Positions 965-48,650 of a stretch of DNA of 48,654 nucleotides are shown piece after piece. Made by a program: the position numbers and the translations under genes. The first letter of the stretch is position 1. Every line of letters starts with the position of its first letter. The notes under the pieces are model-generated. The model worked only from the letters and a program-made list of their open reading frames with translations. It was not told the DNA's origin and searched no databases. Source of the stretch: an uncultured Gemmatimonadaceae bacterium (GTDB lineage Bacteria > Gemmatimonadota > Gemmatimonadetes > Gemmatimonadales > Gemmatimonadaceae); NCBI GenBank assembly GCA_963829055.1, contig CAWHHI010000014.1, positions 1-48,654 on the forward strand, read 5' to 3'.

Positions 965-982
965 GCCTAACGAGTGCGGCTA

Positions 983-1203
983 GCTGGTTGCTGGGTGTGG
1001 GTGCTGGGGCTGGGTGATGCTGGGTGCCTATGTCATCCCGAGCGTCAGCGAGGGATCTTGGTGAAGGTATTCGTGGCAACGCGGCTACGATGACGTCCAG
1101 AAGGTCCCTCGTCGCTGGCGCTGCTCGGGAATGACACCGGTCGGGCCTCAGCACCCAGGATCACCCAGCGACCAGCACGACCACCCAGCTACCAGCTGCA
1201 GTT
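983..1203. repeat. Composite inverted-repeat element: family-B arms (983-1017, 1161-1203) enclosing a family-A REP-like hairpin (1031-1136)
   Basis: GCTGGTTGCTGGGTG...GCTGGGTGA versus TCACCCAGC...CACCCAGCTACCAGC; inner TGTCATCCCGAGCG...GCTCGGGAATGACA; lies between convergent genes. Confidence 0.8.
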
Positions 1204-1212
1204 GACACCGAT

Positions 1213-3563
1213 CTATGGAACGATCTGAGGCTTGCCGATCTGATATTCCTTCGGCGGCTCCGCGCCCTGCAGGTTCTTCACGAAATAATCCCAGCGCCGC
1301 CGCATGACGTAGTTGTTGTCCACGCCGTAGCCGTGACGCGCGTGCGGCAACATGATCAGATCGAAATCCTTCCCCGCCTTCACGAGCGCGTCGACCACGA
1401 GCTGCGTGTTCTCCGCCGGCACGTTGTCGTCCATCTGCCCGTGCACGAGCATCAGCTTGCCCTTCAGGTTCTTCGCGTACGTCTCGTTCGACTCGGCCGC
1501 ATAGTTGTCGGTCGCGCCGTTCTTCGCGAGCGAGACCCTGATAGCGCTCGCCCCAGTCGTCCTCGTAGTTGCGGTTGTCGTGATTGCCCGACTCCGCGAT
1601 GCCGACGTCGAAGAAGTCCGTGAACTTGAACATCGCGGACGCCGTCGCGAACCCGCCGCCGGAGTGGCCCCAGATCCCGACCTTCTCGCCGTCGATGAAC
1701 GCATACCGCTTGGCGAGCTCCTTGATGCCGGCGACCTGGTCGGGAATCGTGTTGTCGCCCATGTGGCCGTAGTACGTGTCCGCGAACGTCTTCGAGCGGC
1801 CCGGCGTTCCCATGCCGTCGATCGCCACGACGACGAAGCCGAGCTCCGCCAGCGCCTGGTGATCGCCGCGCGCGGGGGAGAAGCTGCGAGGGCCGACGCT
1901 GCCGCTCTGCGGACCGGGGTAGATGTAGTCGATGATCGGGTACTTCTTCGACGAGTCCATCTTCGACGGCGTGAACATCAGATCCGTAGATGTCGGTCTT
2001 GCCGTCACGGCCCTTCATCTTCACCGACGTCGGCGGCCGCCAGCCAGTCGCGACCAGGCGCGAGATGTCCGCCTTCTCGAGCGTCTGCGAGATCTTGCCC
2101 GCTCCGTCGCGGAGCACCGTCACGGGCGGCGTCTCGGGCGTCGAGTACGAATCCACGACGTACTTCCCGTCCGCCGACATCGAGACGCTGTGGTTCGCGT
2201 TCTCCGGCGTCAGCAGCGTCTGTCCCTTGCCGTCGAAGCCGATGCTGTAGAAGTGCTGATAGTACGGATCGCGCCCTGGCTCCTTGCCCTGCCCCATGAA
2301 GTAGATCGATGCGCGCCTTCTCGTCCACGCGCACGACGTCCTCGACGTTCCCGTCGCCGGTCGTTATGCGGTTCTTGAGCTTGCCCGTCGTCAGGTCGTA
2401 CAGGTAGAGGTGAATCCAGTCGTCGCGCTCCGACCACCAGATCAACTCGTTCGACGCCGGCAGCACGCGCCACAGATTCTCGGGCAACGATGCATCGCCC
2501 ACCTGCGTCGCGGCATGTTCCTCGAACAGCGTCTTCACCGCGCCGGTGCTCGCATCGGCCACGCGGAACCACGCCGTCTTGTGATCGCGCGAGCTCGAGA
2601 TGAACGCCAGGTGTGAGCCATCAGGATACCACTGCACGTCACAGATCTCGCCGCCGCAGTTCACATGATCCGACACGGTGGACCGGTGCGCGTCAGGCGG
2701 CATGTCGAGCCGGAGCACGTGCGCGCCGCCGTTAGGCAGCAGGTGGATGATGACGCGGCTGATGCGGAAGATCACGCTGTCGCCCGGCATCGGGTACTTC
2801 CACGCATCGAGCTTCGGGCCACCGACGTTCGTGGACACGAGATACATGTCGCGCACGCCACGACCGTCGTGCTGGAACGTCGCGATCTGCTTCGAGTCCG
2901 GTGACCACGTGAGCACCGGCCGGTCGCTGTGCGCCCAACCGGCATTGTCGGTCGCGTAGCCGAAATCCTTGATGCCGTCGGTCGTGAGCTGCGTCTCGCG
3001 TCCAGTCGCGAGATCGCGCGCCCAGAGATTGTTGTCCTTGATGAACGCCGCCAGTCTTCCCGTCAGGCGACACGCTCGAGTTCTGCGGCGCGCGTCCGCT
3101 CGCGGGCGTCGAGTCGCCGCCGGCGCACGTGTACTGCTGCAGATCGCATTTCCAGCTGCGGTTCTGCAGGCTCACCGTGATCGACCGGTTGTCCTTGCAC
3201 AGGTCGAACGACTGGAACGGCAGTCGATTGCCATCCACCCGTCCACCTGACGCCGCCGCGAGTGCCGCAGCCAGTCGAGTGCGATCGAACACCTCCGCGC
3301 GCGTGCTTTCGCGCGGGATCGACGACGTAGAACGCGCCGCCGTTCGCGATCGTGGACCGGTACCAGAATCGACCGTCGTCGAGCCAGCGCGGTGGACCGC
3401 TGAGGCCGCTCACCAACGACAGGGCCGAGGCGCCAAGATACCGCTCGGCCCGCCCGTAGTCCTCGGCGGTGAGTTGACGAGGCGCTTGCGTGGCGGCCTG
3501 CCCCGACAACGACGAGGCGAAAGGCGCCACGACGATCAGCAAAGCGGCACGAGAAAGGCGCAT
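1213..3563 (-). CDS. S9B dipeptidyl-peptidase IV-like secreted peptidase (frameshifted in this sequence)
   Basis: ORF fragments 3063-3626, 2732-3292, 2005-2916, 1464-2297, 1148-2008 and 1213-1704 join into signal peptide + DPPIV_N propeller + catalytic GIWGHSGGG, QMDDNV, HARHGY. Confidence 0.88.
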
Positions 3564-3644
3564 GTGAATCGAAGGTGAACCGGTGAAGTGGTTACGCAGC
3601 CGGAAGGACACCGGGCTGCTCGACAAGCTACCCCATGGGTTGAA

Positions 3645-5417
3645 ATGGCGGGAGACGGGTCACAGGTCCGGTTCCTGTCGCTCGACCGATCCGGTTCGGC
3701 ATTATCCGCACATCGAGGGCCGGTGTTGGACGCATGGTGCGTCCCGCGAATCGCGGCCCTCGCCGCGAGCACAGGTGGTGGTCGTGGAAGAGAAAGCGAA
3801 CGACACGAACGTTCCAGGAACGCGTCACACGGCTCGAGGGGCGCTTTGGCCGATGCGCGGTCCAGCGCTGATGCACACTCCACCGCGCTGTACTCGGGCA
3901 TTCGGTCACTCGTCACAGAGCTGATCCGGCGTCGCCGCCAGAGCGAGCAGCTGTGCGACACGCTCTCGCGCGTGCTCGAGGCCACGAGCGACGGCTTCGT
4001 CGCCCTCGACTCTCAATGGAGATACACGTACGTCAACGCGCACGCCGGACATATGTTCGGCCGCGACCCGTCAATCGTTGATCGGCAAGAACATCTGGGC
4101 CGAGTTCCCGGAAGGCGTCGGGCAGGCGTTCCAGCAGGAGTACGAGCGCGCCATGGCCGACGGGCAACCGCATCAGATCGAAGCGTACTACCCGCCGTAC
4201 GATCGCTGGTTCGACAATCGGATTTTCCCGTACGCTGGCGGGCTCGCGATCTTCTTCCAGGATGTCACCGAGCGACGCATCGCCGACGATCGGCTGCACG
4301 AGAGCGAGCAGCGCTACCGATCACTGTTCGACCACAACCCCGACGCGGTGTATTCGATGAACGTCGAAGGTCGCTTCACGAGCGCGAACGCTGCCTGCGA
4401 GGAGCTGACCGGACGTACGATCGATGAGCTGATGGCAACTCCGTTCGCTCCCTCGTCGTGCCCGAACATCGCGAGCGCGCCCACCAGCACTTCCTCACGG
4501 CCATCCGTCGGAAGGCGACGAGCTACGACGAGGCCATCCTCCACAAGAGCGGTCGCCGCGTCGAGATCTCCATCACGAAGCTCCCCATTATCGTCGACGG
4601 CAAGGTCGTCGGCGTCTACGGCATCGCGAAAGATCTCACCTGGCAGCGAGAGCTCGAGTGGCGGCTCCAGCAGTCGCAGAAGATGGAGGCGGTAGGACGA
4701 GTCGCCGGGGGCGTCGCGCACGACTTCAACAACCTGCTCACGGTCATCCAGAGCTGTGCGTCGTTTCTCGCCCGCGATATTCCGGAGTCCAACCCGTCTG
4801 CACGCGAGACGTCGAGTCGATTCAGAGCGCGTCGCGACGCGCCGGCGAGCTGACGCAGCAGCTGCTCGCGTTCAGTCGCAAGCAGCTGTTGCGGCCGCAG
4901 CTGATGGACATCAACGGCACGTGCTGGGTTTCGTCGCGACGCTGCGGCGCGTCGTCGGGGACGACCATCGCGATTGAAACGGATCTCGCACCAAATACCT
5001 GGCCGTTTTCGCCGACCCCGGACAGATCGAGCGCGTCCTCATGAACCTCGGCCTGAATGCGCGCGACGCGATGCCGAACGGTGGCACGATACGGGTTGGT
5101 ACCGAGAACCTCGTGCTGGGTCGCGAGGCAGCCGGCAATCCTGCGCCAGGGAACTACGTGGAGATCACGTCGAGGATACGGGGACGGGGATCGACCCTGC
5201 CGTGCTGCCGTACCTCTTCGAGCCGTTCGTGACCACGAAGCCCGCCGGCGTCGGCACCGGGCTCGGCCTCTCGACCGCACACGGGATCGTCGAGCAGACC
5301 GGCGGCGTCATCCGCGCCAGCAGCACGCCCGGAAGTGGCAGCCGCTTCTCGGTCTTCCTGCCGCGGGCCGTGGCGATGATCTGCCGACGCCGCGGTCGCC
5401 TAACGCTGCACCGATGA
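3645..5417 (+). CDS. PAS-PAS sensor histidine kinase (frameshifted; start uncertain)
   Basis: Two PAS domains (SDGFVALDSQWRYTYVN; YRSLFDHNPDAVY), H-box VAHDFNNLL, N-box NLGLNARDAM, G-boxes DTGTG/GTGLGL; no C-terminal receiver domain seen. Confidence 0.85.
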
Positions 5418-5449: not shown

Positions 5450-6390
5450 GACCGCCGATCGCAGGAACCCGATGAGCAGCGGGTTCACGACGTCGGTGCG
5501 CTCCATGAGCGGCAGATGCGCCGGCGCGCTCGATCGGATGGTACTGCGCCTGCGGGATCGCCTTGCGCACACCGTCTCGCGTGGTCGATGGTCACCGTGC
5601 TGTCCTGCATGCCCCAGATGAGCAGCGTCGGCACGCCCATCGCGCCGACGCGTGCGTAGACGGAATCCAGCGGGTCCCGCCATCTCTCCCGGAGCGTGGA
5701 CAGAAGCGCGCGGCCGAATCCTCGATACTGCGTCTGCACGCGATAGCGGGCCTGCCCAGTCCGGCCACCTCGCCGGCTCCACGAAGTCCGATGAGCTGAC
5801 CCGGAGCCATCTTCGGCACTGCGAGGGCCTGCCACAGCACGGGGCCCGACGACAGGAAGACGGAACATGGCAGTGGCGCACCTCGGCTCTCCCCGGCGAC
5901 TGGATCGATCAGCGTCAGCGAGCGAACGCGCTCCGGGTGTGGCCCACGAAGGTTCCCGTCACGGATCCACCCATGGAAAGCCCCATGACATCCACCCGAT
6001 CGCGCCACCCGAGTGAGTCGAGGAGCTGAACGAGCTGACGGTCGTACAGGTCGGCCGTGTAGGCGACGTCGGGACGATCGGAGTAGCCGCGCCCGTACTC
6101 GTCGTATCGAGCGACGCGAAACCCGGCACCCGCGAGCGCCGTGACGGTCGAGTCCCAGATGTACGACGGGACCGAGAAGCCGTGAACGAGCATGACTCGC
6201 TGGCCGCTGTCGGGCCCGGCGACGTCGTAGTGCGTGATGCCGTCGCCTAACGTCACGAACGTGCCCGGCACGCCCTGGCGCGCACCGGCGTCGAGATCGG
6301 CACGCTCGGGGTTCCGCGTGACGTTGAGGTAGACGCGAGGCAGGCGACGGCGATGGCAATCGGCGCGACGATGAGCTTACGGAGTCGCAT
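5450..6390 (-). CDS. Alpha/beta-fold hydrolase (frameshifted; 3' end approximate)
   Basis: LVHGFS, YDEYGRGYSDRP, nucleophile GLSMGG, PTLLIWGMQD, HLPLMERTDVVN across fragments 5915-6271, 5485-5868 and 5165-5881. Confidence 0.8.
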
Positions 6391-6512: not shown

Positions 6513-7434
6513 GTGAAACGTGTCACTAGGCCGGCTCTCTGGGGAATCGACCTCGGAGGCACGAAGATCGAAGGGGCCATTGTCGATCCCGGGCGTGCAG
6601 ACCGAGCCGAGTGGCGCGCGCGGATCCCGACCGAGAGTGCACGGGGCTACGAGCCACATCATCCGGCGGGTGGTCGCGGTCGTCGAGCGACTCGAGCGGG
6701 ACTCTGGCCTCGGCGTCCGCCGGTGATCGGCGTCGGGACACCCGGCGCGATCGAGCCCGACAGCGGGCATGCTCAAGAACTCGAACACGGTCTGCCTGAA
6801 CGGGCGGCCGCTCGCGGCGGACCTGTCGTCGGCGTTAGGCGTCGAGGCGCGGCTCGCGAACGACGCCAATTGCTTCGCGCTCGCCGAAGCGACGCTCGGC
6901 GCCGCCCGCGGCCGCGCGGTGGTGCTCGGACTGATCATCGGCACGGGCGTCGGAAGCGGGATCGTCGTGGACGGCCGAGTGCTCCACGGCCGCCACGGGA
7001 TCGCCGGCGAGTGGGGCCACAATCCGATCTGCGGCGAGACCGCTACCGTGCTACTGCGGGAGCGTCTGGGTGCGTCGAGACGGTGATCTCGGGCCCGGCG
7101 CTCGAGCGATTCTATCGACGCGCGAACCGGCCACGCGCGGACGCTGCCGGACATCGCCCGCCGCGCCGGCGCGGGCGATGCGGACGCCAGCTGAGACGTT
7201 AGGCCGCCTGACGGAGAAGTTCGGCGAGGCGATCGCCGCGGTGATCAACATCCTCGATCCCGGACGCGATCGTGATCGGCGGCGGTGTCGGGAACATCGA
7301 TCGGACCTGTACGACGACCGCACGCGCGAGGCGATCCGCCGCCACCTGTTCAACCCCGACGCTGCGCACCGAGCTTCTGCGCCCGACGCTCGGCGACAGC
7401 GCAGGCGTCTTCGGTGCAGCGCTGCTCCTGCTGA
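6513..7434 (+). CDS. ROK-family sugar kinase (fructokinase/Mak-like; frameshifted, no clean stop)
   Basis: GIDLGGTKIE, ANDANCFALAEA, GTGVGSG, AGEWGHN, CVETVISG, GDSAGVFGAA. Confidence 0.88.
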
Positions 7435-7704: not shown

Positions 7705-9153
7705 CTACTGCGCAGTCCTCGACGTGGTCGTCAGCGCCTTCGTCAGGCGGTACAGGAACTCCTGCCCCTCGTAGTACGACTGAATCCGCATGCGCTCATC
7801 GCGCCCGTGCGCGCGCGCGTCGACCGTCGGATCGGAGAACAAGCCCGACACACCGAACGCCGGTACACCCTGCGCACGGAAGAACCGCGAGTCCGTCGCG
7901 CCCGTCGACATCACCGGAATCACCGGAATGTTGCCCCACATGTCGCGCGTGATCTGCGTGACCGGCTCCATCAGCTCCGGCAGCATCGCACTCGGCGGCG
8001 ACGGCGGACGCTGCGAACGCACGAGCACCTGCACCGTCGTGTCGTTGATCAGCTTCTCGAACTCCGCGCGCACCACCTCCGCCGTATCCGTCGGGAACAG
8101 CCGACAATTGACGTTCGCCTCGGCCAACTGCGGCAGCGCGTTCGTCGCGTGTCCGCCGTTCAACATCGTCGCGACGCACGTCGTCCGAAGCATCGCGTTG
8201 TAGCGCGGGTCGGCGGAGACCGCGGCGATGGCCGCTGGGTCCGCCGGGTTCGCCACGAGCGCCTTCATCGCGCGGCCTAACGCCGGCTCTTCCACGTCGG
8301 CCGTCTTCGCGAAGAAGGCCTTCGTCACCTCGTTCATGCGAACCGGAAAGTTGTGACGTCCAACCTTCGCCAGCGCATCCGCCAGCGCCGTGATCGCGTT
8401 GTCCGCGCGTGGCACGGACGAATGCCCACCACGATTGGTCGCGCGAAGCGTGATGTTCGTCGTCACCTTCTCCGTGGCTTGTACGGAGTTGAACAGCGGC
8501 TTTCCGTTGCGCAACGTCCCGCCGCCACCTTCGTTGATCACGAGCGCGCCGTCGATCAGCTCGGGGTGATTCTTGAGGAGCCAGTCGACGCCATTCGCCG
8601 GACCGCTCTCCTCGTCGGCCGTGAGCGCGATGATGATGTCGCGGTCGGGCACGTACTTCTCGCGCATCATGCGCGTGGCGTTCGCGACGAAGATCGACGC
8701 CATGGCCTTATCGTCCGCCGTACCGCGGCCGTAGTAGTAGCCGTCGCGCTCGGTGAAGACGAACGGGTCGAGGTCCGGGGACCAGTCAGCCTTGAGCGCT
8801 TCGACGACGTCGATGTGCGCGAGCAGCAGCAGCGGCTTCCGCGCCGCGCCTGCTTTGCCGCGGATGCGCGCCACGACGTTGTGCTTTTCGGGACGCGGAC
8901 CGCCGACGAAGATGTCGGCCTCCGGAATCCCGGCATCGCGGAACCGCTTGGCCATCGCGACTGCTGCCGTCGTGACATTCCCCGTCGTCACGCCGGTGTT
9001 GATCTCGATGAGCTCTTTATAGATGTCGTGCGCGAGCTGCTGGTTCGCGTTGAGCGACCCAGGCGTGAAAACCGCGGCGCCCCGCGCCTGTGCGCCGAGG
9101 GCGAGTGGTAGCGAGACGATGGCGGCGATGGCCGCGAGACGTGGGAAGCGCAT
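7705..9153 (-). CDS. M20/M25/M40 family metallopeptidase, secreted
   Basis: Intact ORF; signal peptide; LLAHIDVV, GRGTADDK, ADEE, NEGG, GATDSRF, AHGRDER metal-binding motifs. Confidence 0.92.
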   Translation of the reverse strand: MRFPRLAAIAAIVSLPLALGAQARGAAVFTPGSLNANQQLAHDIYKELIEINTGVTTGNVTTAAVAMAKRFRDAGIPEADIFVGGPRPEKHNVVARIRGKAGAARKPLLLLAHIDVVEALKADWSPDLDPFVFTERDGYYYGRGTADDKAMASIFVANATRMMREKYVPDRDIIIALTADEESGPANGVDWLLKNHPELIDGALVINEGGGGTLRNGKPLFNSVQATEKVTTNITLRATNRGGHSSVPRADNAITALADALAKVGRHNFPVRMNEVTKAFFAKTADVEEPALGRAMKALVANPADPAAIAAVSADPRYNAMLRTTCVATMLNGGHATNALPQLAEANVNCRLFPTDTAEVVRAEFEKLINDTTVQVLVRSQRPPSPPSAMLPELMEPVTQITRDMWGNIPVIPVMSTGATDSRFFRAQGVPAFGVSGLFSDPTVDARAHGRDERMRIQSYYEGQEFLYRLTKALTTTSRTAQ

Positions 9154-10030: not shown

Positions 10031-10771
10031 TCAGCGGCGTGACGGCAGGCGCCTAACGAGCGGCGAGCGAGCCGCCGATTCTCCGCGCGACAACACGAGT
10101 GCCAGCCGCTCGCCGCCGTTGAACCAGTTGGCCCGCACGGCTCGCTCCGCCGCGGCCGCACCACCCGCGCGAACGGCGGCAACGATCGCGGCATGCTCGG
10201 CGTAGGTCGCGCTGAAGTCCGGGCCGATGAGCGGCGCGTACAACCACTCGTAGCGATCGAGGCGCGGCCGCATCGCCTCGAAGAGCGCGCGAATCGTCCC
10301 GCCGGCGCAGGCATCGTGAAGCGCGCGATGAAACGCATCGTGCCGCTCGAACAACGCATCGTAGTCGAGTGGTCGCTGACGCGTCGCGACTCGGAACGCC
10401 GTGTCGCGGCGGCGCATCTCGTCGGCCAGGCGCTGGCGCTCCACAGACGAGAGATCCGTGACGCCGCGCGCCACGATGCCCTCCAGCGCACCGGCGGCCT
10501 GATAGAGCTCTACCACGTCCGCCGGTCCCACTGGTGCCGCGGCCATCCGCGGGCGAGCACCGCCGCCGTCCGCGACGAGGAGCCCTTCAGCGAGCAACCG
10601 GCGCATGGCCTCGCGCACCGGCGTGCGACTCACGCGCAAGCGGGCCGACAGATCCGCCTCGGTCACTCGAGCCCCGGGCGGAATATCCCCGCCGACGAGC
10701 AGGCGCCGGACGTGGCTATAGGCGTCCGCCGGGCGGAGACGCGCGACGGGCTGGCTCGGAGCGGCAGTCAC
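10031..10771 (-). CDS. GntR-family (FCD) transcriptional regulator
   Basis: HTH EADLSARLRVSRTPVREAMRRL; FCD motifs AFHRAL and EHAAIVAA. Confidence 0.9.
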   Translation of the reverse strand: MTAAPSQPVARLRPADAYSHVRRLLVGGDIPPGARVTEADLSARLRVSRTPVREAMRRLLAEGLLVADGGGARPRMAAAPVGPADVVELYQAAGALEGIVARGVTDLSSVERQRLADEMRRRDTAFRVATRQRPLDYDALFERHDAFHRALHDACAGGTIRALFEAMRPRLDRYEWLYAPLIGPDFSATYAEHAAIVAAVRAGGAAAAERAVRANWFNGGERLALVLSRGESAARSPLVRRLPSRR

Positions 10772-12308: not shown

Positions 12309-12318
12309 GAGCGCACTG

Positions 12319-12465: not shown

Positions 12466-12467
12466 AT

Positions 12468-15100: not shown

Positions 15101-15102
15101 GA

Positions 15103-15444: not shown

Positions 15445-15450
15445 ACGCTC

Positions 15451-18368: not shown

Positions 18369-18398
18369 AGGAGGTCGATCGGCGCACGCCGGTGACGG

Positions 18399-22702: not shown

Positions 22703-22744
22703 CTCGTGCTACCGCACCTAACGAGTCAGACGATTTCCCGGCGA

Positions 22745-36641: not shown

Positions 36642-36654
36642 GAGCGTTAGGCGC

Positions 36655-37053: not shown

Positions 37054-38679
37054 ATGTCCGACTTCTACATCACGACCGCCATCGAGTACGCGAACGGCGA
37101 ACCGCACCTCGGCCACGCCTTCGAGAAGATCGGCGCTGACGCCATCGCGCGATACCGGCGCCTGCGCGGGGATACCGTTCGCCTCCTCGTCGGCACCGAT
37201 GACCACGGGCTCAAAGTCGCGCGCGCCGCCGACGCCGCCGGCCTCACGCCGATCGCGCAGGCGGATCGCATCAGCACCCTGTTTCGCGACACGTGGGACG
37301 CGTTAGGCATCGCCTACGACACATTCGTACGCACCACCACGCCACACCACGCCGCCGGCGTGTACGCGCTCATCGAGCGGATCATCGACCGGCATCCGAT
37401 CGGCCTTCTACGAGCGAGCGTACGAAGGGTGGTACTGCGTCGGCTGTGAAGCATTCCGCACGGACCGCGAGCTCGATGCGGGACGCTGTCCCATTCACCC
37501 TTCACTCGCCATCGAACGGGTCGCCGAGTCGAACTGGTTTTTCCGCCTCAGTGCGCACCAGCATTTTCTGCTCGCGTTTCTGCGTGACCATCCCGACTTC
37601 ATCCAGCCGCCCGCTCGCTACAACGAGATCCTGGCGTTCGTCGAGCGCGGGCTCGAGGACGTATCGATCACACGGGCCTCGTTCGACTGGGGGATTCCCT
37701 TTCCGCTGCCCGACGCGCGCGGACGTCACCAGGCGATCTACGTGTGGTTCGACGCGCTGCCGAGCTATCTGACGGCGACCGGGTATCCCGGCGAGAGCGG
37801 TGAGATCCGGTGGCCGGCGCAGGTGCACGTCGTCGGTAAGGACATCACGCGCTTTCACTGTGTGCTATGGCCTGCGGTACTTCATGCGGCAGGGCTGCCG
37901 CTCCCCGAACGCGTCTGGGCTCACGGATTCGTGACCGCAGACGGCGCTCGGCTCAGCAAGACGGCGGGCGTGTGGATCGATCTCGAGCGCCGCGATCGCT
38001 CGCCACGGCGCCGACGCGCTCCGCTACTTCCTGCTGCGCGAGATTCCATTCGACGGTGATGGCGACTTCAGCTGGGATCGATTCGACGCCCGCTACACCG
38101 CGGACCTCGCCAACACGCTCGGCAACCTAACGAGTCGGGTGACGGCGCTGGTGACCAGACACGCCGCGCGGCCGCGTCCCGGCTCGACCGGTCGCCCCTG
38201 GGATCGACGGCGTGATCGGCGCGGCAGAGGCGGAGCTGGAAGCACGAGTCGCACAGGCGCATGCACGTTACGCCACGGCATTCGAGGCGTTCCGGCCGCA
38301 CGACGCACTGACCGCGGTGTGGGACGCGCTCTACGCGGGGAATGAGTATCTGAGCCGCGTCGCACCGTGGACACTGGCGCGCGACCCGGTGGATCGGCCG
38401 GCGTTCGACCGGACGCTCGCCGCCGCGGTCAGGCTGCTGGCACGGTCGGCGGTGCTGCTGGGGCCAGTAATCCCCGAGAAGGCGGACGAGCTGTGGCGGG
38501 CGTTAGGCGGGCCGGGATCGGTTCACGATCAACGTCTCGCTGATCTCGAGCGGCTTGACCCGACCGGGTGGAGTGTCACGGCAGGAACACCGTTGTTCCC
38601 GAGGGCCCCTGTCATCCCGAGGAGCGCCAGCGACGAGGGACCTTCTGTGAAGTACTCGTGGCCAGGTCGGCTACGATGA
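37054..38679 (+). CDS. metG: Methionyl-tRNA synthetase, short form (frameshifted)
   Basis: FYITTAIEYANGEPHLGH, knuckle YCVGCE...CPIH, YVWFDAL, GKDITRFH, RLSKT (KMSKS equivalent), anticodon-domain NEYL...PW; reading frame runs into the repeat. Confidence 0.92.
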
Positions 38680-40158: not shown

Positions 40159-42940
40159 TCAGTCTGCTCGCAGCGCCTCCAGCGGACCGACGCGCGCTGC
40201 TCGCGCCGCCGGCAGGTAGCCCGCGACCGCCGCGCTCAGTGCCAGCACCGCGAGCGCAACGACGATCGACGGAATGTCCACCGAGCCCACGCCGAACAGC
40301 TGGTTGCGCAGTAGTCGCGTCGCCGCGATCGCCAGTGGAAGGCCGACGATCGCTCCGCCGACGACGAGCGCCATCGCTTCGCCGAGCACCATCCGGCGGA
40401 CGGTACGCGGCTCGGCGCCGAGGGCCATGCGGAGGCCGAACTCGCTGGTGCGCCTCAGCGTCGCGTACATCATCACGCCGTACAGGCCTAACGCGGCGAG
40501 CGCCAGCGCCAGCGTGCCGAAGAAGCTCGCGACTGTTGCGACGAGCAGGTCCTGGCTGATCGACAGTCGCATGAGCGACGTGAGCGGATCGTTGTCGAGC
40601 ACGACCAGACTCGCATCGACGGCCGACAGCTCCCGGCGCGCGGACGTCACGAGTTTCGCCGGATCACCGGTCGCCTGCAGCTCGAACGTGAACTGCGTCG
40701 GCAGGCCGCCGCCCTGGTAGATGGGCAGATACAATCTCCGCGCCGGTGACTGGCGCAGCTCGTGATCCTTCGTGTCGGCGACGACGCCGACGATCTGGTA
40801 CGTCGCGCTGTCCACGCGGACCCGGTGACCTAACGCCTGACCCTTCTGGAAGTAGGCGGACGCCATGGTCTCGTTCATCACCGCGACGTACGGCGCGCGC
40901 TCGTTGTCGGTCTCGGCGATGTCGCGTCCCTCGATGAGCTTCGCGCCAATGGCCTTGAAGTATCCCGGCCCGACCCGATCGTAGTTCGCGGTGGTATCCG
41001 CCTCGGTTCGTGCCGTGAACCCTTCGACGTACAGTGAGGTGAACGACTCGGTGCCGCTGAAGATCCCGTTTTCGGAGAAGCTCGCGGCGGCGACGCCCGG
41101 AATGCGTCGCACGCGCTCGAGCAACTCGCGCGACAGCTGCGCGAGGCGTTCGCCCTCGAGCCCTGTGGGCGCCGCGTCGACCGTCACGATGAGCAGACGA
41201 TCGCGCGCGAGGCCCGGATCGACGTTCGCGAGGGCCCGGGTGCTTCGCACCAGCATGCTCGTCCCCACAAGCAGGGTGAGCGAGAGCGCGACCTGGAAGA
41301 CGACCAGTAGCTTCCCCAGCCCGAGTCGCCCCGGTGCGCCTAACAAGCCGCCGGTAAGCCCGCGGCTGTTTGCGCGCAGCGTGGCCGCCAGCTCGACGCG
41401 GGTTGCCCGGAGCGCCGGGATGAGCCCAAAGAGCAGCGCGGTAAGCCCGGTCACGACGACCGTGAACGCGAGCACGCGAACATCCAGACGCGTATCCAGC
41501 GGCACGGCACCAGGGCCACCGTCGGCAATGCGGAGCAGCACCGTACTGCCCCACTTGGCGAGCAGCAGCCCAACGCCGCCACCGAACGCCGCGATGAGAA
41601 GAGTCTCCGTCAGGAGCTGGCGGACCAGCCTGACGCGACCGGCGCCAAGCGCCATGCGAACGCCAAGCTCGCGGGAGCGGGCCGCGCCGCGAGCCAACAA
41701 CAGGTTCGCGGCGTTGGCGCAGACGACGAGCAACACCAGCGACACCGCCGCCATGAGTGTGCTCAGCGGCTCGGCGTAGACCGCACGCAGGCCCGAGATG
41801 CCACGCGACCCGGATTCGACGTTGACGGTGCCGTCCCGAACATTTCGGACATGATCACCGTCCGGTGCCGTGGCGAGCAGGGTCTGACGCACGAGCGTCG
41901 GGTAGGCTGACTGCACTTGCTCGAGCGTCACGTTAGGCCGCCGGCGGCCGATGAAGAGCAGCCAGCTCTGCGTCGGTGACGTGAGCCAGTCGCGGCTGTT
42001 GAGTGCCGGCTGCATCGTCAGCGGCATCCAGAGGTCGGTCATGCGGCCGACGACCTCACCGGTGAATCCCGGAGGGGCGACACCCACGATGGTGAACGGG
42101 ATACGGTTCACCGCGATGGTACGCCCGACGACGCTACGGTCCCCGGCGAAGCGGCGCTGCCAGTACGCGAAGCTGAGCACCGCAACCGGTGAGCCGTTGG
42201 CCACGCGATCGTCGTCCACAGTCAGCGGTCGGCCGAGGAAGGCAGGGACGCCGAGGACGGCGAAGTAGTTCCCGCTGACGAGCCGGCCGCGCGGATGCTC
42301 CGCGCCCGATGCACCGCTCCGCCCCGCGCGTGACGAGTCGTCTATCGTGACGTCGAGCCGACCGGCGCGACCCGTGGCCAGCAGACCGGTGAAGAAGCGC
42401 GTCTCCTTCCGAAGCTCGAGGTACTCACGGTACGAGAAGAGGTCGACACGCAACGAGCCGTCTGAACTACTGTTGGTGCGGCGGGAGTCACCGATCACGA
42501 CGAGCTGGTCGCCGTTAGGCACGGGCAGGGGCCGGAGCAGCAACGCGTCGATGAGCGTGAAGATCGCGGTGTTCGCGCCGATGCCGATCGCGAGCGACAG
42601 CACGATCACGAGCGCGAAGCCGAGGTTGTGGCGGAGGGAGCGCATGGCGTAGAGCGTGTCCTGGCGCAGCTCGGTGAAGTAGTTGGCGCGGTTCACGGCC
42701 TTCTCCTGCTGATGGTCGATGTCGAGCATCTCGCGTCGGACGGTGTCCCAGTCGCCGAACTGCTCGGAGTGCCTGCGCGCGAGCGGTGGCGGGGTCCATG
42801 TCCGCGCTCGACGAGGCGGCGGACGCGCATGTCGAGGTGGAACGCGAGCTCGGCGTCGACGTCGCGTTCGACGCGGTGTGGCCCGAGCTCGAGGCGGAAG
42901 AGACGCGGCTTGCGGGTGGCGTGCGGTCGGAGTCGGTCAT
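40159..42940 (-). CDS. MacB/FtsX-like duplicated orphan ABC permease (ADOP-type; N-terminal frameshift)
   Basis: 856-aa ORF: QDTLYAMRSLRHNLGF, LAIGIGANTAIF, RSRELGVRMALGA, RRTSEFGLRMALGA; N-terminal DVDAELAFHLDM in another frame. Confidence 0.9.
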
Positions 42941-43534: not shown

Positions 43535-44399
43535 CTACGGTTTGATCACTCCCAAGCGCTTCGCGATCAGCCGATCGAGGATGCGCGCGGGGAGCGCCAG
43601 CGGGATCGTCCAGTTCAGCAGGCGGCGGCGCACGACTGGGTAGGACGTTCGAGGCGATGGCGTAGTCAGCGCGGTCCATACGGCCTCACCGACTGCGTCC
43701 GCGGGGAGGCCGGCGCGGCCACTCGTCAGAGCCGCGGTCAGGAATCGCGTCAGCAGCGGCTCGTATTCCGTGCCCGCATACCGCGACCCATCCTGCGACT
43801 CGGCCTTGTCCCAGATGGGTGTTGCGACCGAGCCCGGGTTGATGATCACCACGTCGATGCCGTACAGCATCAACTCTCGGCGCAGGCTCTCGGACATTCC
43901 TTCGAGTGCCCGCTTGGACGCCGCGTAGGCGCCGAGGAACGGGGCGCTCAGTCGGCCGGCGACGGAGCTGATCTGGATGATTCTTCCGGGCTTCCCCGTG
44001 CGGGATCGGTCGGCGCCGAGCAGCGGGGCGAACGCCTGCGTGGCCGCAAGCGCGCCGACGACATTCACCTCGAGAGTGCGCCGGACTTCGTCGAGCGGCT
44101 GGTGGATGAGCGGGCCGCCGACCGCTATGCCGGCGTTGTTCACGAGCCCGAACAGCGTGCCGCCCTCCAGCGCCTCGGCAACGGCAGGCACGGAAGCGCG
44201 AATGGCGTCGACATCGGTGACGTCGAACACGAGTGGCGTGAACCGGTCACCCAACTCGGCGCGGACTCGGTCGCCGTCGGCGCCACGCCTAACGCTACCG
44301 AACACGTGGACGCCGTGGCCAACGAGGACGCGCGCGATGGCGAGCCCGATGCCGGTCGACACGCCGGTGACGACGACGCACGGTGCCGGTGCTTGTCAT
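43535..44399 (-). CDS. SDR-family NAD(P)-dependent oxidoreductase
   Basis: VVVTGVSTGIG, LVNNAG, YAASK; probable ATG at 44399 (inside the repeat end) needs a 1-base frame correction. Confidence 0.88.
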
Positions 44400-44544: not shown

Positions 44545-46094
44545 TCAGTGCGGCGCGCGCTTGATGATCATGCCGGGTCTCGCGCCCGTGGTCTTGCCGT
44601 CCGCGTACACTTCGCCGCCGTTCACCCACACGCGCTCGATCCCGACTGACGTGAGGTGCGGCTGCTGCGGCGTCGCGCGGTCGATCACCGTCGCGGGATC
44701 GAACAGCACGAGGTCGGCGAACATGCCCGGCGTTAGGCGCCCGCGATCGCTTGATCCCCATGTGCTCCGCCGCGAGCGACGTCATGCGGTGCACGGCCTC
44801 CTCGAGCGACATCACCTTGCGCTCGCGGACGTAGACGCCGAGGAAGCGCGGGAAGGCGCCGAAGCCGCGCGGGTGCGGGCCGTCGAGCGAGCCGTCGGTG
44901 CTCAGGTTCGTGTGCGGCCAGCGCAGGATGCGCTCGACGTCCGGCTCCACCATGCTCGTGCCGATGACGCTCTGCGTCGAATCGGCCCGTCTTCTCGCGC
45001 ATCGCCTCGGATTCGCGAATGAGGTCGATGAGCGTCGTGATCGAGTCCGTGCCGCGCAGCTTCGCGATCTCGGCGACCGTCTTGCCGGCGTAGGCGGGGT
45101 TCGGCTCGTAGCGACCGAGCAGCAGGCCGCCCGGCGTGGACGTCTCGGTGAGCGCGAACTCGGCGGACGTGCGATTCTCGAAGTCGCGCTTCGGGAAGAG
45201 GACGGTGAGCGTCGAGTGCCAGTAGAGGTACGGGTAGATGTCGGCGGTGATGTCGACGCCGCTCGCGCGCGCCGCGTCGAGGATCCTAACGAGACTGTCG
45301 GCGTGACCCCACAGCGCGCGCATGGCGAGCTTCGCGTGCGAGATCTGCACGGGGAGCTTCGCCTCGCGGCCGATGGTGATGATCTCGTCGATCGCCTGCC
45401 AGAACGCGAAGTCCTCGCTCCGGATGTGGCTGATGTAGCGGCCGCCGAATGGACGCGACGACCTTGGCGAGCGCGATGACCTCGGCGCGGATCGGAGTAG
45501 ATGCCGGGGTCGTACTCGAGGCCTGACGAGAGGCCGATCGCGCCGGCGCGCATCTCGCTCGCCAGCATCGCGCTCATGCGCGCGACTTCGGCCGGCGTGG
45601 CGACGCGCTTGAAGTCCTCGCCCATCACGGAGTCGCGGATGCTGCCGTGGCCGACGTACATGCCGACGTTGACGGCGGCCGGCGATCTTCTCGAGGCGCG
45701 CGAAGTAGTCGGCGAGCGGGAGCGGTCGAGCCGCCGTCCTGGCCGCCTATAATGGTAGTGATGCCCTGCGAGACGACGGCGAGCGCGTCGGGGTGCTCGA
45801 AGAGGTCGTCGTCGGCGTGGGAGTGCGTGTCGATGAAGCCGGGGGCGAGGATGAGGCCGTGGGCGTCGATGGTACGCTCGCCGGCTGCGCGGGGTCAGGT
45901 CACCGACGGCGGCGATGCGGTCGCCCTCGACGCGGACGGACGCTCGTCGGCCTGGAGAGCCGGTGCCGTCGATGACGTTCGCGTTCGTGATGAGGAAGCT
46001 CGGGCGCGCCGGGGTGGCGGAGCGGAGGGCGATGCCGCGGCGGCGCATCGCGGTTACCACGGCAGGACGCGGCGTAGGTGAACCGGCGGATCAT
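44545..46094 (-). CDS. N-acyl-D-amino-acid deacylase (amidohydrolase; frameshifted, start uncertain)
   Basis: NVIDGTG, LAPGFIDTHSH, GLSSGLEYDPG, SHIRSE, QISHAK, DIYPY, HPRGFGAFPRFLG, ADLVLFDP. Confidence 0.88.
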
Positions 46095-46330
46095 CGGGCG
46101 TCACTCGTTATGCGGAAGGGCTAGCCAGGGCCGGCATCGCGGACGTTCGTGCCTGTCGTGAGTAATCAGTGCGTGAGCCGTCGGTCATCAGTCATTCAGT
46201 CGAGTCGTCAGTAGCACCGCAGCGATGGCGGTTCGTAGCCGTTCGCCAGGCGGGACTGAAAACTGATGACCGACGACTGATCGACGCACGACGTGTTACT
46301 GGCCAGAATTGCCATGAGCCGAGTTCGAGA

Positions 46331-46530
46331 AGATCCCTCGCTTCGCTCGGGATGACAACGGGTGTCATTCCGAGCGGAGCCGCGAAGCGTCGCGAGTGCC
46401 GCAGTTGAGGAATCGCGATCGTACGGAGCAGAGAGCCCTCTACCATGAAGCCAAGGATTCCTCATCTGCCTCGACGTTCCGTGGGCTCCCGGCTCCGCTC
46501 GCTCGGAATGACAAACGGCTCGGAATGACA
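46331..46530. repeat. Family-A repeat cluster (both subtypes adjacent)
   Basis: AGATCCCTCGCTTCGCTCGGGATGACA followed by TGTCATTCCGAGCG...GAGGAATC...GATTCCTC...doubled CTCGGAATGACA. Confidence 0.85.
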
Positions 46531-46610
46531 GGGCCCTGACTTGCGGCCCCTCACGTCCCCGCCAGAGTTGACCCTGTCTCACGAGCCTTCCCGCCCTGCC
46601 CCAGCCCACC

Positions 46611-48650
46611 ATGAGCGTCTTCACCGTTCTCGTCGTCGCCGCACTCCAGGCGCAGACACCCGCCCAGCAGCAGGCGGCCGCCCAGCTTCCGCCCTCGCCC
46701 ATCGCGAAGCTGGTCGTCACGCCGGCCAAGCCGGTGATGATCGCGCAGTGACACGCTGCGGCTCACCGCACAGGCGCTCGACGCGAGCGGGAAGCCCGTC
46801 GACAACGTGCGCTTCCGCTACATTGGGTCGGGCGGCGCGCGGTTCGAGGGGCGGGTGGACACCACCGGCCTCGTTCGCTCCGGCTCGACCGGCACGATCC
46901 CCGTCACCGTCGTCGCCCTGGTACCGGGCACGCGGCCCGTGACCGAAGTGGTCGAGGTGAAGATGCTGCCCGGACCCGCCGCCAAGGTCATCGATCGACG
47001 CCGCGCCGCCGAAGCTCGTCGTCGGCCAGCAGGTCGTGCTCAGCGGCACCGCGTTCTCCGCCACCGGCGATCAGCGCCCCGACAAGCTCGCGTGGAAGAG
47101 CTCCGCGCCTAACGTTGCGCGCGTCGGCAGCGACGGACGGCTCACCGCACTCGCGCCGGGAAAGGCGACCATCACCGGCGACGACCGGTCAGGCATCAGG
47201 CACGCTCGCGCGTGACGGTCGTCGCGAACACGATCGCGTCGCTCGAGATCGCTCCCGCGCCGTCGCTGCGCGCACCGGCGACGTGCTGCGCTTCGCGGTC
47301 ACCGCGAAAGACGCGCAGGGCCGGAAGATCGACGGCCTCACGCCGACGTGGAGCTTCTCGCCCGGCCACGGGACGATCGAGCGACGGCGCGTTCGTCGGC
47401 TACGAAGCGCGGCGAATACACGGTGATTGCGTCGTTCGGCAACGCGTCGCGCAGTCGGCCGTGAACCTACGCATCGCGACGTACGTCGCCCGGCGACGGT
47501 CGTCGGACGACTGCCGCGCTCGCGCTTCAGCACCGAAGAAGTGTGGGTCCACCAGGACGGCAAGCACGCCTACCTCGGCTCCGGCGGCGGCGGCGACGTG
47601 CTGTACGCGATCGACATCAGCGATCCGACGAACCCGATCGTCACCGATTCGGTCATCTCGAACACGCGCCGCGTGAACGACGTGATGACGTTCCCCGACG
47701 GCAAGTTCCTCGTCTTCACGCGCGAAGGCGCGAGCGATCGCAAGAACGGCATCGTCATCTGCTCGCTCGACGACCCGGCGCATCCGAAAGTGATCGCCGA
47801 GTTCACCGAGGGCGTGACGGGTGGCGTGCATTCGATCTTCGTGAACAAGCAGGACAAGTTCGGCACGTTCCTCTATCTCACGAACGACGGCACCGGCGCG
47901 CTGCACATCCTCGACGTCAACGATCCGTATCATCCGAAGGAAGTCGCGCGCTGGAAGACGGAAGGCCGTCCCGACGCCGGCCGCTCGCTGCACGACATCG
48001 ACATCACGGACGGGCTGCTCTACGCGAGCTACTGGAACGACGGGCATCGTCGTGCTCGACATCGGCAACGGCATGAAGGGCGGTTCGCCGTCCAACCCCA
48101 CGATGGTGTCGCAGTTCAAGTACGATCTGAACGCGCTATACAAACAGGTCGAGGTCGACGGCGGCCCGGGCTTCATTCGCGGCACGCACACGGCGTGGCG
48201 CCACAAGAACTACGTGTTCATCGCCGACGAAGTATTTCCGGCGAGCGGCGTCGAAGGGCACGAAGGACGCCGCGGCCGGTCGCGCGTACGGACGTCTGCA
48301 GGTGCTCGACGTCTCCGACATCGCGACATCCGAAGTCCGTCGCGTGGTACGAGCCGGAGTACGGCGGCGTGCACAACGTCTGGGTCGCTCGGCGACACGC
48401 TCTACATGGGCGCGTACAACGCGGGCTTCCGCGTGTTCGACATCTCTGGTGAGCTGCGCGGCGATCTGCGCGCGCAGGGGCGCGAGATCGGCCACCTCAA
48501 CACGGCCGACATGGATGGCCACGTGAAGAATTCGGCGATGACGTGGGGCGTCGTCGTCAATCCGAAAGACAACCTCGCGTACGTCAACGACGACAACAAC
48601 GGGCTGTGGATCGTACGATCGAGCCGAAGAAGCCTGATGTTGTGCCCTGA
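46611..48650 (+). CDS. Secreted Ig-like-domain + LVIVD-repeat protein (frameshifted)
   Basis: Signal-like N-terminus; Ig-like strands (AWKSSAPNVARV); LVIVD-type repeats (YAIDISDPTNP, HILDVNDPYHPKEV, VLDVSD, RVFDISG). Confidence 0.8.

Follow-up and report, generated by a model that had tools for sequence, protein, structure and literature searches.

Why should one short word, GCCTAACG, be written thousands of times into the genes of a soil Gemmatimonadaceae bacterium against the organism's own codon habits? The window, 48,654 nucleotides in length, is the whole of contig C14 in a 20-contig, 7.78 Mb assembly (genome G000, completeness 85.9%). As the original prediction had it, the window holds exactly 45 copies of CCTAAC/GTTAGG at the predicted positions, 24 on the forward strand and 21 on the reverse, whereas dinucleotide shuffles gave a mean of 3.98 and a maximum of 9 and 0 of 100 reached 45. 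The extension to CCTAACG was also recounted as predicted, in 41 of the 45 against about 2 expected (shuffle mean 2.00, maximum 5). The base 5' of the hexamer (n = 45) is G in 34, A in nine, C in one and T in one, and the full 8-mer GCCTAACG, that is G-CCTAAC-G, accounts for 30 of the 45 copies. The copies located by motif scan are listed here, with what comparison to relatives or to other contigs added.

966..972, forward, GCCTAACG; full 8-mer with base 965
2730..2736, reverse, GCCTAACG
5399..5405, forward, GCCTAACG
6246..6252, forward, GCCTAACG
6833..6839, reverse, GCCTAACG
7197..7203, reverse, GCCTAACG
8276..8282, forward, GCCTAACG; conserved in L007 orthologue
10052..10058, forward, GCCTAACG
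12655..12661, forward, GCCTAACG; conserved in L004, L005, L006
12838..12843, forward, GCCTAACA, one-off variant
13145..13151, forward, GCCTAACG; gained in this lineage, altering Ile/Leu; opposite strand reads CGATCGGC in relatives
14475..14481, forward, ACCTAACG
14778..14784, forward, CCCTAACG
16714..16719, reverse, GCCTAACA, one-off variant
16948..16954, forward, GCCTAACG; gain in this genome; CGTCAGGC-type words in relatives
17761..17767, reverse, ACCTAACG
18266..18272, reverse, GCCTAACG; conserved in L006 only
20684..20690, reverse, ACCTAACG, S9 peptidase gene; relatives have GCCTAACG
21504..21510, reverse, GCCTAACG, S9 peptidase gene; GCCTGACG/GCCTCACG in relatives
22717..22723, forward, ACCTAACG
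23465..23471, reverse, GCCTAACG; conserved in L001, L005, L006, L007
24146..24152, forward, GCCTAACG; conserved in L001, L005, L006
24484..24489, forward, GCCTAACT; contigs of three other runs have G at 24490, completing the word
25464..25470, reverse, ACCTAACG, histidine kinase gene
26470..26476, reverse, GCCTAACG; conserved in L005, L006
31492..31498, reverse, GCCTAACG, amidase signature GALGSDTGGS; GCG-TTA-GGC = Ala-Leu-Gly
31968..31974, forward, ACCTAACG, amidase gene
32414..32420, forward, GCCTAACG
33091..33097, reverse, GCCTAACG
33394..33400, reverse, GCCTAACG
34588..34594, reverse, GCCTAACG
36085..36091, forward, ACCTAACG
36645..36651, reverse, GCCTAACG
37301..37307, reverse, GCCTAACG
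38126..38132, forward, ACCTAACG
38501..38507, reverse, GCCTAACG
40487..40493, forward, GCCTAACG, MacB/FtsX permease gene
40829..40835, forward, ACCTAACG, permease gene
41339..41344, forward, GCCTAACA, permease gene
41931..41937, reverse, GCCTAACG, permease gene
42513..42519, reverse, GCCTAACG, permease gene
44288..44294, forward, GCCTAACG, short-chain dehydrogenase gene
44731..44737, reverse, GCCTAACG
45285..45291, forward, TCCTAACG
47108..47114, forward, GCCTAACG

Genome-wide, GCCTAACG was counted 5004 times against roughly 100–300 expected (102 from an order-2 Markov model, 258 from order 3 and 297 from zero order), ranking first among 8-mers whichever low-order model is applied, and CCTAACG occurs 6391 times against 249 (order 2) or 720 (order 3). 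Comparison of the flanks of dispersed copies showed no conservation beyond the 8 bp, and the word counts showed neither erased one-off variants nor a missing partner word. The original prediction knew of no description of the word and our literature search likewise gave no paper on it.

Placement was examined in 6477 CDS (5.72 Mb), called with a hexamer model that we trained on the assembly itself, which contains frameshifts. These CDS contain GCCTAACG 4059 times against a mean of 330 in 20 synonymous-codon shuffles within genes and a mean of 183 when codon order was shuffled. The codon-preserving shuffle had been set beforehand as a possible refutation, and the enrichment survives it with an observed to expected ratio above 12, although the shuffles retain the rare codons supplied by the motif itself. 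More than half of all TTA codons (1583 of 2799, 57%) lie inside the motif, including that for the amidase signature leucine, where window positions 31452–31541 read ...GALGSDTGGSIRIP with GCG-TTA-GGC as predicted. Peptide contexts which permit the word are filled to between 11 and 58%: x-P-N-[VADEG] in 893 of 1535 cases, [SPTA]-L-G in 1294 of 5789, [SRGC]-L-T in 599 of 2983, x-V-R-[LPHQR] in 433 of 3991 and TAA stops in 262 of 810. Non-coding DNA makes up 22.7% of the genome and holds 26.1% of the copies, so density is about equal inside and outside genes. On every test run the word holds as a DNA-level signal maintained against codon preference. This part of the original prediction stands; of the origins it offered, an uptake signal and a nucleoid-protein site are both possible and a methylation-driven motif has lost ground.

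The copies are spaced more evenly than chance at roughly one per kilobase. Pairs less than 200 bp apart number 86 against 308 expected under random occupancy of permissive sites (z −6 to −8), and gaps of 400–3200 bp are in excess of the same expectation. There are nine deserts of at least 9 kb against 1.9 expected. The three largest are probably chimeric or foreign-organism segments rather than islands, thus the impression that foreign DNA is without the word is weaker than it appears.

At orthologous sites in relatives of ∼78% DNA identity, 2–5 of 4–8 aligned copies are kept per relative, control 8-mers being kept at 14–18%. The copies not kept are lineage-specific gains over common-codon words, e.g. 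GCCTGACG or CGATCGGC, and these gains often take a pair of base changes (CTC to TTA, for example). Dense occurrence is confined to part of the Gemmatimonadales, eight of the genomes being word-rich (G000–G006 and G014), and the gradient of density clusters on a gene tree. The same word is used without dialects, at 1.5 per kb in G014, which belongs to another genus, and at 0.16 per kb in G010. Even spacing and conservation would also result if selection maintained binding sites at intervals.

The best reading, which we hold tentatively, is that the word may be a self-tag resembling the DNA uptake sequences (DUS, USS), spread by biased uptake or recombination. A putative sequence-specific protein would recognise this tag, which extends lineage-wide through part of the Gemmatimonadales, in double- or single-stranded form and act on ∼1-kb fragments, most likely during DNA uptake or during recombination after uptake. 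Word-bearing DNA would be taken up or recombined more often, and biased transmission (molecular drive) would in this way carry new copies through the population at any position that protein coding allows, until most permissive peptide contexts were filled and copies lay roughly one per kilobase. We infer the role of the reader in uptake or recombination, and likewise that copies accumulated by drive and not through selection at each site.

The USS of Pasteurellaceae has a 9-bp core and the DUS of Neisseriaceae is 10–12 bp with the receptor ComP; in Haemophilus and Neisseria they occur at ∼1 per kb, symmetrically and evenly spaced. It is to these sequences that the word appears closest in behaviour, being a short non-palindromic word at about one per kilobase, equal on the strands, placed in genes in tolerant frames, more even than chance, common to related species and scarce in foreign DNA. 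It differs in belonging to another phylum, in being an 8-bp word without flanking context or visible dialects, in not being concentrated in terminators or inverted pairs and in matching an integron core. Uptake machinery is present in G000, with matches to ComEC, DprA, a secretin and HHH_3 (ComEA-like), five genes for pilins and a pilMNOPQ/minor-pilin cluster. A search for two of the minor pilins found them in 28 and 29 of 31 relatives irrespective of the word, and since the competence genes found are near-universal their co-occurrence gives no evidence for uptake. Unlike the case of DUS, no ComP_DUS-type receptor was found in the eight word-rich genomes, the search of 31 genomes giving four weak or other matches, all in word-poor genomes. 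Among the genes compared across relatives none followed the word, no paper was found pairing Gemmatimonad* with 'uptake sequence', and to our knowledge natural transformation has not been reported for the phylum.

A less likely but serious alternative is that an abundant protein of the chromosome, serving nucleoid organisation, segregation or repair loading, binds the word, with weak selection on each copy and spacing set by the protein. The even spacing with repulsion below ∼200–400 bp, the conservation at orthologous sites, the identical word across genera without drift and the similar density inside and outside genes would all suit such a protein, but at thousands of sites the selection on a single copy would have to be stronger than that on codon usage, and as much as 58% of the permissive contexts would have to be filled in this way. 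The known parS, matS, NBS and SBS families comprise tens of sites each, not thousands, and no candidate chromosomal protein was found.

The original prediction missed that the word is an integron core site. GCCTAAC and its complement fit the consensus RYYYAAC/GTTRRRY as given in PMC3053210, the wild-type attI1 oligonucleotide described in PMC2811028 includes GCCTAAC, and attC sites of the order, those of this genome included, have as their R'' end the 7-mer with its next base G, GCCTAACG. By our own arithmetic the chance of the top 7-mer fitting RYYYAAC is about 16 in 8192, and this exact match is unexplained by a plain uptake model. The word could thus be the R box for an integron integrase or a relative, the dispersed copies being secondary sites of cassette exchange or landing, or products of the recombinase, which we consider rather doubtful. 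The attC sites of relatives G021 and G019 start with GCCTAACG, end with TGTTAGGC, adjoin intI and fold as ∼100-nt imperfect hairpins, and G000 carries an intI at C20:208011-208961, which scores 265.7 bits where the cut-off is 265 and is accompanied by attC sites starting with GCCTAACGC. Of 31 genomes in the order, 22 have an integrase match at E ≤ 1e-40, but these matches do not follow the word: they are found in word-poor genomes and not found in G002, G004 and G010, and the integrase of G014 is in three out-of-frame pieces. Unlike attC, the dispersed copies are single 8-mers in ordinary genes on both strands, without L box, partner arm, hairpin, conserved flank or nearby integrase, and orthologue alignment indicates that they are substitutions, not insertions or cassette junctions. 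Inverted pairs at 40–150 bp are not enriched (78 and 65 against 157 direct), synteny-block ends lie 14–1673 bp from the nearest copy, and genomic cassette insertion is described as requiring only GWT (bioRxiv 10.1101/2022.09.11.507474). We know of no mechanism by which a recombinase multiplies its own site.

It is improbable that the word arises from a bias of mutation or repair associated with a DNA methyltransferase, an origin suggested for HIP1 and of the kind seen in very-short-patch repair, and a methylation-driven origin is weakened by several results. HIP1 (GCGATCGC) of cyanobacteria is palindromic and co-occurs with cognate methyltransferases; like it, the word is a hyper-abundant octamer in the genes of one clade against codon preference, but it is asymmetric and no methylase tracking it was found. 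The short asymmetric form with A near the 3' end is that of type IIG, III or BREX-type targets, and C8:73551-78317 encodes a single type IIG/DrmMI-like methylase together with an SNF2 helicase. Orthologues of this methylase, however, are present in 29 of 31 relatives with or without the word, their identity declining with distance and not with the word. Profile searches of G000 (85.9% complete) found no C5 methylase (PF00145), no N4/N6 methylase families (PF01555, PF02384) and no Vsr. Bias acting site by site predicts random spacing among permissive sites, which the spacing test rejects, and it sits poorly with the survival of every one-off variant and with gains needing two substitutions.

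That a recombination or translocation motor reads the word as a polar signal is very improbable. Chi and KOPS/AIMS are polar relative to replication, and like them the word is short, asymmetric, frequent, spaced on the scale of fragments and readable by a DNA motor, but it fails the polarity test. As the original prediction noted, strand bias is absent, both in the window (24/21) and genome-wide (2457 forward, 2547 reverse). Across the clear replichore switch on contig C16, where genes on the forward strand fall from 81% to 22%, the word counts are 161/203 and 233/229 (forward fractions 0.44 and 0.50), the fraction is 0.47–0.50 on C4, C11 and C20, and the correlation with GC skew is weak (Pearson r = −0.19, 137 bins). 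The enrichment is also far above that of Chi.

A systematic base-calling or assembly artefact can be dismissed as far as contigs can show, even though the assembly has the look of error-prone long reads (7.8 Mb in 20 contigs, with split genes) and its C5–C7 runs are 9- to 45-fold scarcer than the median for words of equal G+C, because the word respects reading frames and recurs in the contigs of other studies. A stop falls between two coding stretches in only 64 of 6389 copies, whereas about one in four would be expected of an artefact blind to frame, and of 843 motif stops with coding upstream 64 also have coding downstream, compared with 312 of 4984 control stops. Nor is a partner word missing from the counts. 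The word is present at 0.7–1.2 per kb in 15 contigs from other studies, many with names in the style of short-read assemblers (k141_, NODE_), and at 2501–5112 copies in six genomes of the same genus (260–1170 contigs). Contigs from four public runs cover window positions 12001–32000, and among the 40 differences listed (549 more are unlisted) the sole one touching a copy completes the word.

A recount of the window found every one of the 45 CCTAAC/GTTAGG hexamers claimed for it, each at its own coordinate, 24 on the forward strand and 21 on the reverse strand, and the extension of 41 of them to CCTAACG was exact. Dinucleotide-preserving shuffles of the window gave a mean of 3.98 hexamers (largest 9) and 2.00 copies of CCTAACG (largest 5). 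When the 45 copies were aligned, 34 were preceded by G and 9 by A, and 41 were followed by G. The full octamer GCCTAACG, referred to here as the word and counted on both strands, makes up 30 of the 45. The genome under study (G000; 7.78 Mb in 20 contigs, 66.7% G+C, the window being all of contig C14) contains 7103 CCTAAC hexamers, and 7103 of its 7780 CTAAC pentamers lie inside the word. Genome-wide, CCTAACG was observed 6391 times vs 249 (order-2 Markov model) or 720 (order-3) expected, and GCCTAACG 5004 times vs 102 (order 2), 258 (order 3) and 297 (zero order), ranking first among 8-mers under all three models. A maximal-order Markov ranking is blind to the word because its own sub-words are saturated by it, and low-order models were used in its place. 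In a logo of all 7103 copies the information was confined to positions -1 to +6 and did not exceed 0.17 bits elsewhere, therefore the unit is 8 bp and is not part of a longer repeat. The word does not fit a dispersed repeat of the REP or MITE type, given an 8 bp unit only and the location of 74% of copies within called genes. Further over-represented words in the genome, TCCTAAG (71 vs 4.8), TGTCATCC, TCGGAATGA, TTCCTCGACT and TCCGCTCGGA, probably belong to families of dispersed repeats.

Genes were called with a self-trained hexamer model, giving 7376 genes and a coding share of only 77% because the assembly carries frameshifts. In 6477 confident CDS (5.72 Mb) 4059 copies were observed, compared with 330 after synonymous shuffling within each gene (n = 20) and 183 after shuffling of codon order, and therefore the observed to expected ratio is not close to 1 under codon-preserving shuffles. 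The word is read in four frames, while two further frames act as stop codons. More than half of all TTA codons (1583/2799, 57%) are within the word, in keeping with the use of otherwise scarce codons suggested by the original prediction; in the amidase of the window, for example, GCG-TTA-GGC codes for the A-L-G of GALGSDTGGSIR.

Codons inside the word, reading frames of the word and occupancy of permissive contexts by the full octamer
CTA codons inside the word: 779/3919 (20%)
CCT codons inside the word: 1177/8636 (14%)
AGG codons inside the word: 520/5987 (9%)
Frame NCG-TTA-GGC: 1621 copies
Frame CCT-AAC-G: 1225 copies
Frame CTA-ACG: 800 copies
Frame GTT-AGG: 559 copies
Word as the stop codon of a called gene: 520 copies
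Context x-P-N-[VADEG] with full octamer: 893/1535 (58%)
Context [SPTA]-L-G with full octamer: 1294/5789 (22%)
Context [SRGC]-L-T with full octamer: 599/2983 (20%)
Context x-V-R-[LPHQR] with full octamer: 433/3991 (11%)
TAA stops with full octamer: 262/810 (32%)

Occupancy drops where more codons or rarer codons are required, a pattern which looks like a strong DNA-level force balanced against a codon-level cost. The density of the word is similar in genic and non-genic DNA, the 22.7% of DNA outside genes holding 26.1% of copies.

Five loci syntenic with the window were compared with it at 77-79% DNA identity. The window copies identical at the orthologous place numbered 2/5, 1/4, 4/8, 5/8 and 2/7 per relative, with control octamers at 14-18%, and several other orthologous copies differ at the first base only (A for G). 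At places where the relative lacks a copy it carries a word of ordinary codons, GCCTGACG, GCCTCACG, CGTCAGGC, CGATCGGC or GCCTCGGC, and thus copies arise by substitution, sometimes in two steps. Some gains change the amino acid (Ile to Leu) and private gains are found in both lineages. By these alignments the process writing the word is old and ongoing.

The phylogenetic spread was examined in 30 relatives. Counts in the seven genomes of the genus all lie in the range 2501-5112, and the six besides G000 are in 260-1170 contigs. A genome of another genus, G014, has 6360 copies in 5.1 Mb and G010 has 605; most other relatives have 3-65, which is below the reversed-word control. DNA fetched from G014 (1.5 per kb) and G010 (0.16 per kb) carries the same word and not a dialect of it, and no dialects were seen in 54 loci of at least 12 kb from word-poor relatives. 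CCTATTC in locus L017 was rejected as a dialect, being a local heptad repeat; at L017:13200-13390 tandem (CCCTATT)n repeats form two inverted blocks. G030 looked mildly enriched (345 vs 147 for the control); in 41 kb of its DNA the word did not rank among the top ones. Of 150 genomes sampled evenly across the phylum, the count was more than twice the control only in G114, G124 and G159, of the same family, and in G167, of a sister family; outside the order this held for 0/44 genomes. Together with G010 these four are independent cases of intermediate density. The tallies of 31 genomes include G013 and the 150-genome sample includes G078 and G117 (flagged unpublished), and no claim is made on these alone. 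In an S9 peptidase tree of 22 rows, from which loci shorter than 7 kb and those with partial matches were omitted, the rows that bear the word cluster, and high, middle and low densities intergrade. This single-gene tree suggests that the word arose once, long ago, and later decayed.

The uptake sequences of Pasteurellaceae and Neisseriaceae occur about once per kb, are strand-symmetric and are placed where coding allows. They show spacing on the scale of DNA fragments, conservation with turnover and one word per clade, and they are scarce in foreign DNA. The word shares all of these features. Like the DUS of Neisseria and the USS of Haemophilus, it is short, non-palindromic, present about once per kb, equally frequent on both strands and evenly spaced. 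By this analogy we tentatively favour the reading that the word is an uptake-sequence-like tag spread by biased uptake or recombination. Drive of this kind would account for the near-saturation of permissive sites better than would selection acting site by site.

The spacing of copies was compared with an exponential distribution, from which 978 gaps below 200 bp were expected and 408 were found. A stricter null, in which 14,298 permissive peptide sites were filled at random with class-specific rates, gave 308 expected pairs closer than 200 bp vs 86 observed (z -6 to -8), with gaps of 400-3200 bp in excess, so the copies are more even than random. Given too few close pairs, a copy makes a further one less likely over the next few hundred bases. 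This effect fits either a function exercised at the level of the DNA fragment or a binding protein with spaced sites, and a mutational bias operating site by site would not produce it. That the word is a spaced chromosomal binding site is somewhat improbable in our judgement.

The search for a reader of the word included known uptake genes. Unlike the DUS system, no ComP-type receptor is present in the word-rich genomes: ComP_DUS (PF16732) was found in 0/8 of these and in 4/31 genomes overall, all of them word-poor. We know of no identified receptor for the USS, and for that reason the absence of PF16732 does not exclude an uptake role. The genome under study has ComEC, DprA, secretins, an HHH_3 match (ComEA-like) in a short frame of 81 aa, five pilin genes and a pilMNOPQ and minor-pilin cluster, with minor pilins at C12:399334-401752, all of which are widespread genes. 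Two of the minor pilins recur in 28/31 and 29/31 relatives. Four members of the genus (G001, G003, G004 and G005) belong to a pattern of two paralogous minor-pilin gene pairs, ∼51-64% and ∼35-39% identical to those of G000, G004 having the distant pair only. None of the genes tested (ComP_DUS, integron integrase, type IIG-like methylase and the two minor pilins) tracks the word.

In the word-poor relatives G021 and G019 same-strand runs of the word every 500-1300 bp were fetched and folded and proved to be integron cassette arrays. The array units start GCCTAACG(G/A/C)AT.GCGC and end ...GCG(C/T)(T/C)TGTTAGGC, each folding as an imperfect hairpin of ∼100 nt, and the arrays adjoin integron-integrase genes (G021:C80; G019:C26, 446 bits). 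Loci L083-L086 (G021:C95, C43 and C80; G019:C3) are large chromosomal cassette arrays of word-poor Gemmatimonadales, in which the attC sites are highly uniform. Further same-strand runs occur in G089, G093 and G140, and strand-skewed counts in genomes of family f2 (e.g. G145, 62 vs 6) probably reflect cassette arrays. The genome under study has an integron of its own:

C20:119252-208961, integron region
C20:208011-208961, minus strand, intI, 265.7 bits vs a cut-off of 265
C20: 119252, 119425, 163144, 173526, 183883, 189214, 191803, 192697, 202790, 205102, 205717 and 207189, attC sites beginning GCCTAACGC.T.AAGTT

These dozen or so attC sites, all on C20:119-207 kb, end CGTTAGG(C/T) or CGTTAGCC. 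Short cassette-like ORFs lie near intI on its 3' side and same-strand runs of the word lie on both flanks.

In the literature the integron inverse core is given as RYYYAAC and the core as GTTRRRY (PMC3053210), an oligonucleotide of the class 1 attI1 site contains GCCTAAC (PMC2811028), and integrons are on record for Gemmatimonadota (PMC8618304). GCCTAAC fits the inverse core and GTTAGGC the core, and both are identical to the attC arms in G021, G019 and G000. The chance of a top 7-mer fitting RYYYAAC is about 16 in 8192 by our own arithmetic. The hyper-abundant octamer is thus identical to the R'' end of the attC sites of this order.

While this identity favours a reader of the integrase type, the predictions of a direct integrase role mostly fail. 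An integrase (E ≤ 1e-40) is found in 22/31 genomes irrespective of the word; it was not found in G002, G004 or G010, and G014 has three out-of-frame pieces. The dispersed copies have no conserved flanks and no partner arm, inverted pairs are not enriched among them, and they arise by substitution. Insertion into genomes by an integrase requires GWT only, according to a preprint (bioRxiv 10.1101/2022.09.11.507474). Synteny-block ends are not at copies, and copies as rearrangement breakpoints were rejected on the same observation. Reading of the word by a protein of the integrase type is accordingly unlikely. Adjacent copies are direct or inverted at the chance ratio of 2:1:1 at all distances above 40 bp. 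Inverted pairs were rejected as proto-attC sites or terminators, being not enriched, and most matches were the true attC sites of C20, plus two perfect hairpins. At C4:2853-3242, close to the start of the contig and within 4.4 kb that lack the word, an ORF for a truncated intI N-terminus (profile positions 2-104, 105 bits) was a candidate stand-alone binder, set aside since it resembles a decayed integrase.

The uptake reading and the integron match could be combined if the reader, whether an uptake receptor or a DNA binder derived from an integrase, recognised the cassette R-box, so that the chromosome and soil cassettes would share one tag. We offer this as a speculation with the odds against it. 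If true, the match to a recombinase core fixed across bacteria would explain a word without dialects across genera, and natural transformation, self-recognition and integron cassette traffic would be joined in one mechanism.

Production of the word by a methylase or by repair bias is very improbable. No match to PF00145, PF01555, PF02384 or Vsr was found in the genome (85.9% completeness). The sole DNA methylase detected in its 7.8 Mb is a frameshifted N6-adenine enzyme of the type IIG/DrmMI-like class adjoining an SNF2 helicase at C8:73551-78317 (L118:9551-14317). Its orthologues, ∼1000-1130 aa where complete, are present in 29/31 relatives with an identity that tracks kinship and not the word. 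In a search with the C-terminal piece of the methylase the G000 frame was shifted and relatives were matched only through stop codons. A conserved, orphan-like methylase-helicase pair is unusual for a defence gene. Unlike the palindromic HIP1 of cyanobacteria the word is asymmetric and has no cognate methyltransferase among the matches, and it does not fit that type of word.

A Chi-like signal is even harder to support, as orientation bias relative to replication is absent. The absence of strand bias noted in the window holds genome-wide (2457 forward vs 2547 reverse octamers). The turning point of the cumulative GC skew of C16 is at 560,910, where the share of genes on the plus strand goes from 81% to 22%; this site is likely an origin or terminus, and its gene-strand bias is of unusual strength. 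To one side of it there are 161 forward and 203 reverse copies of the word, and to the other side 233 and 229. The forward fraction is 0.47-0.50 on long segments of C4, C11 and C20, or 0.44-0.50 including both sides of the C16 switch, and in 50-kb bins (n = 137) the word correlates with GC skew at -0.19. With no orientation bias across the skew switch, polarity like that of Chi or KOPS is therefore excluded.

An artefact of base-calling at a modified motif or of assembly can be dismissed for practical purposes, given the frame-respecting placement of copies, the absence of any missing word, the presence of the word in contigs of other studies and the concordance of contigs from public runs. 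The assembly appears to be long-read and error-prone, and many indel errors are suspected. Split or truncated genes include the amidase (window 31179-32204), a MacB permease (window 12397-15475) and a methylase, C5-C7 runs are 9- to 45-fold under the median of words of equal G+C, and CheckM-type completeness is 85.9% though there are only 20 contigs. Since one strand of the word contains TAA and the opposite strand TAG, errors blind to the reading frame would disrupt genes at about one third of genic copies. Coding potential on both sides of an in-frame stop was observed at 64/6389 copies. Of motif stops with coding DNA upstream 64/843 were also coding downstream, compared with 312/4984 ordinary stops, and in the positive control 3470/3974 in-gene positions were coding on both sides. 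No partner or neighbouring word was missing from the G000 word counts, as would be left if an artefact had erased it. A protein search of public genomes placed the organism in Gemmatimonadaceae and gave 80 loci from many studies; in 15 the density of the word is 0.67-1.26 per kb, many of these being on contigs named in short-read-assembler style (k141_, k101_, NODE_), and most of the rest carry none. Twenty public runs from 14 studies of soil, rhizosphere and sediment hold 22-53% of words sampled from window 19000-27000, thus near relatives are widespread. Contigs of four runs span window 12001-32000 and, among 40 differences listed of 589, only one touches a copy, at 24490. This comparison rests on contigs and not raw reads, and supports the sequence without proving every copy. 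At window 24490 a T to G change in contigs of three other metagenome runs makes GCCTAACT the full word, which is a within-species polymorphism at a copy.

To our knowledge sequence-tagged genomes are confined to two proteobacterial families, with uptake sequences, and to cyanobacteria, with HIP1, the mechanism of which is unsolved. Within the limited literature searched no paper was found on the word in such a sense, in line with the original prediction, nor any pairing Gemmatimonad* with 'uptake sequence'. A third case, in an abundant and little-cultured soil phylum, with a word that fills up to 58% of permissive contexts and equals an integron core, would show a wider spread of genome writing and offer a new system for finding a reader. 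It might also link DNA uptake with gene-cassette exchange.

The word marks own as opposed to foreign DNA and could serve binning and the detection of horizontal transfer in Gemmatimonadaceae. Nine stretches of at least 9 kb in the genome lack it, vs 1.9 expected. The three largest, all at contig ends, are:

C6:6855-55038, word-free stretch of 48 kb
C6:591810-623330, word-free stretch of 31.5 kb
C11:7378-44055, word-free stretch of 36.7 kb

Both C6 stretches have 70-73% G+C. Prophages or islands were rejected for all three because housekeeping genes are present (aroC, trp genes, DAHP synthase, ftsK, def, fmt, glnA, folD and greA). For 5/7 tested genes of the word-free stretches a second copy was found elsewhere in the genome at an identity of only 47-59%. 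The absence of the word has thus revealed ∼116 kb of sequence that probably represents chimeric joins or contamination from another organism rather than islands.
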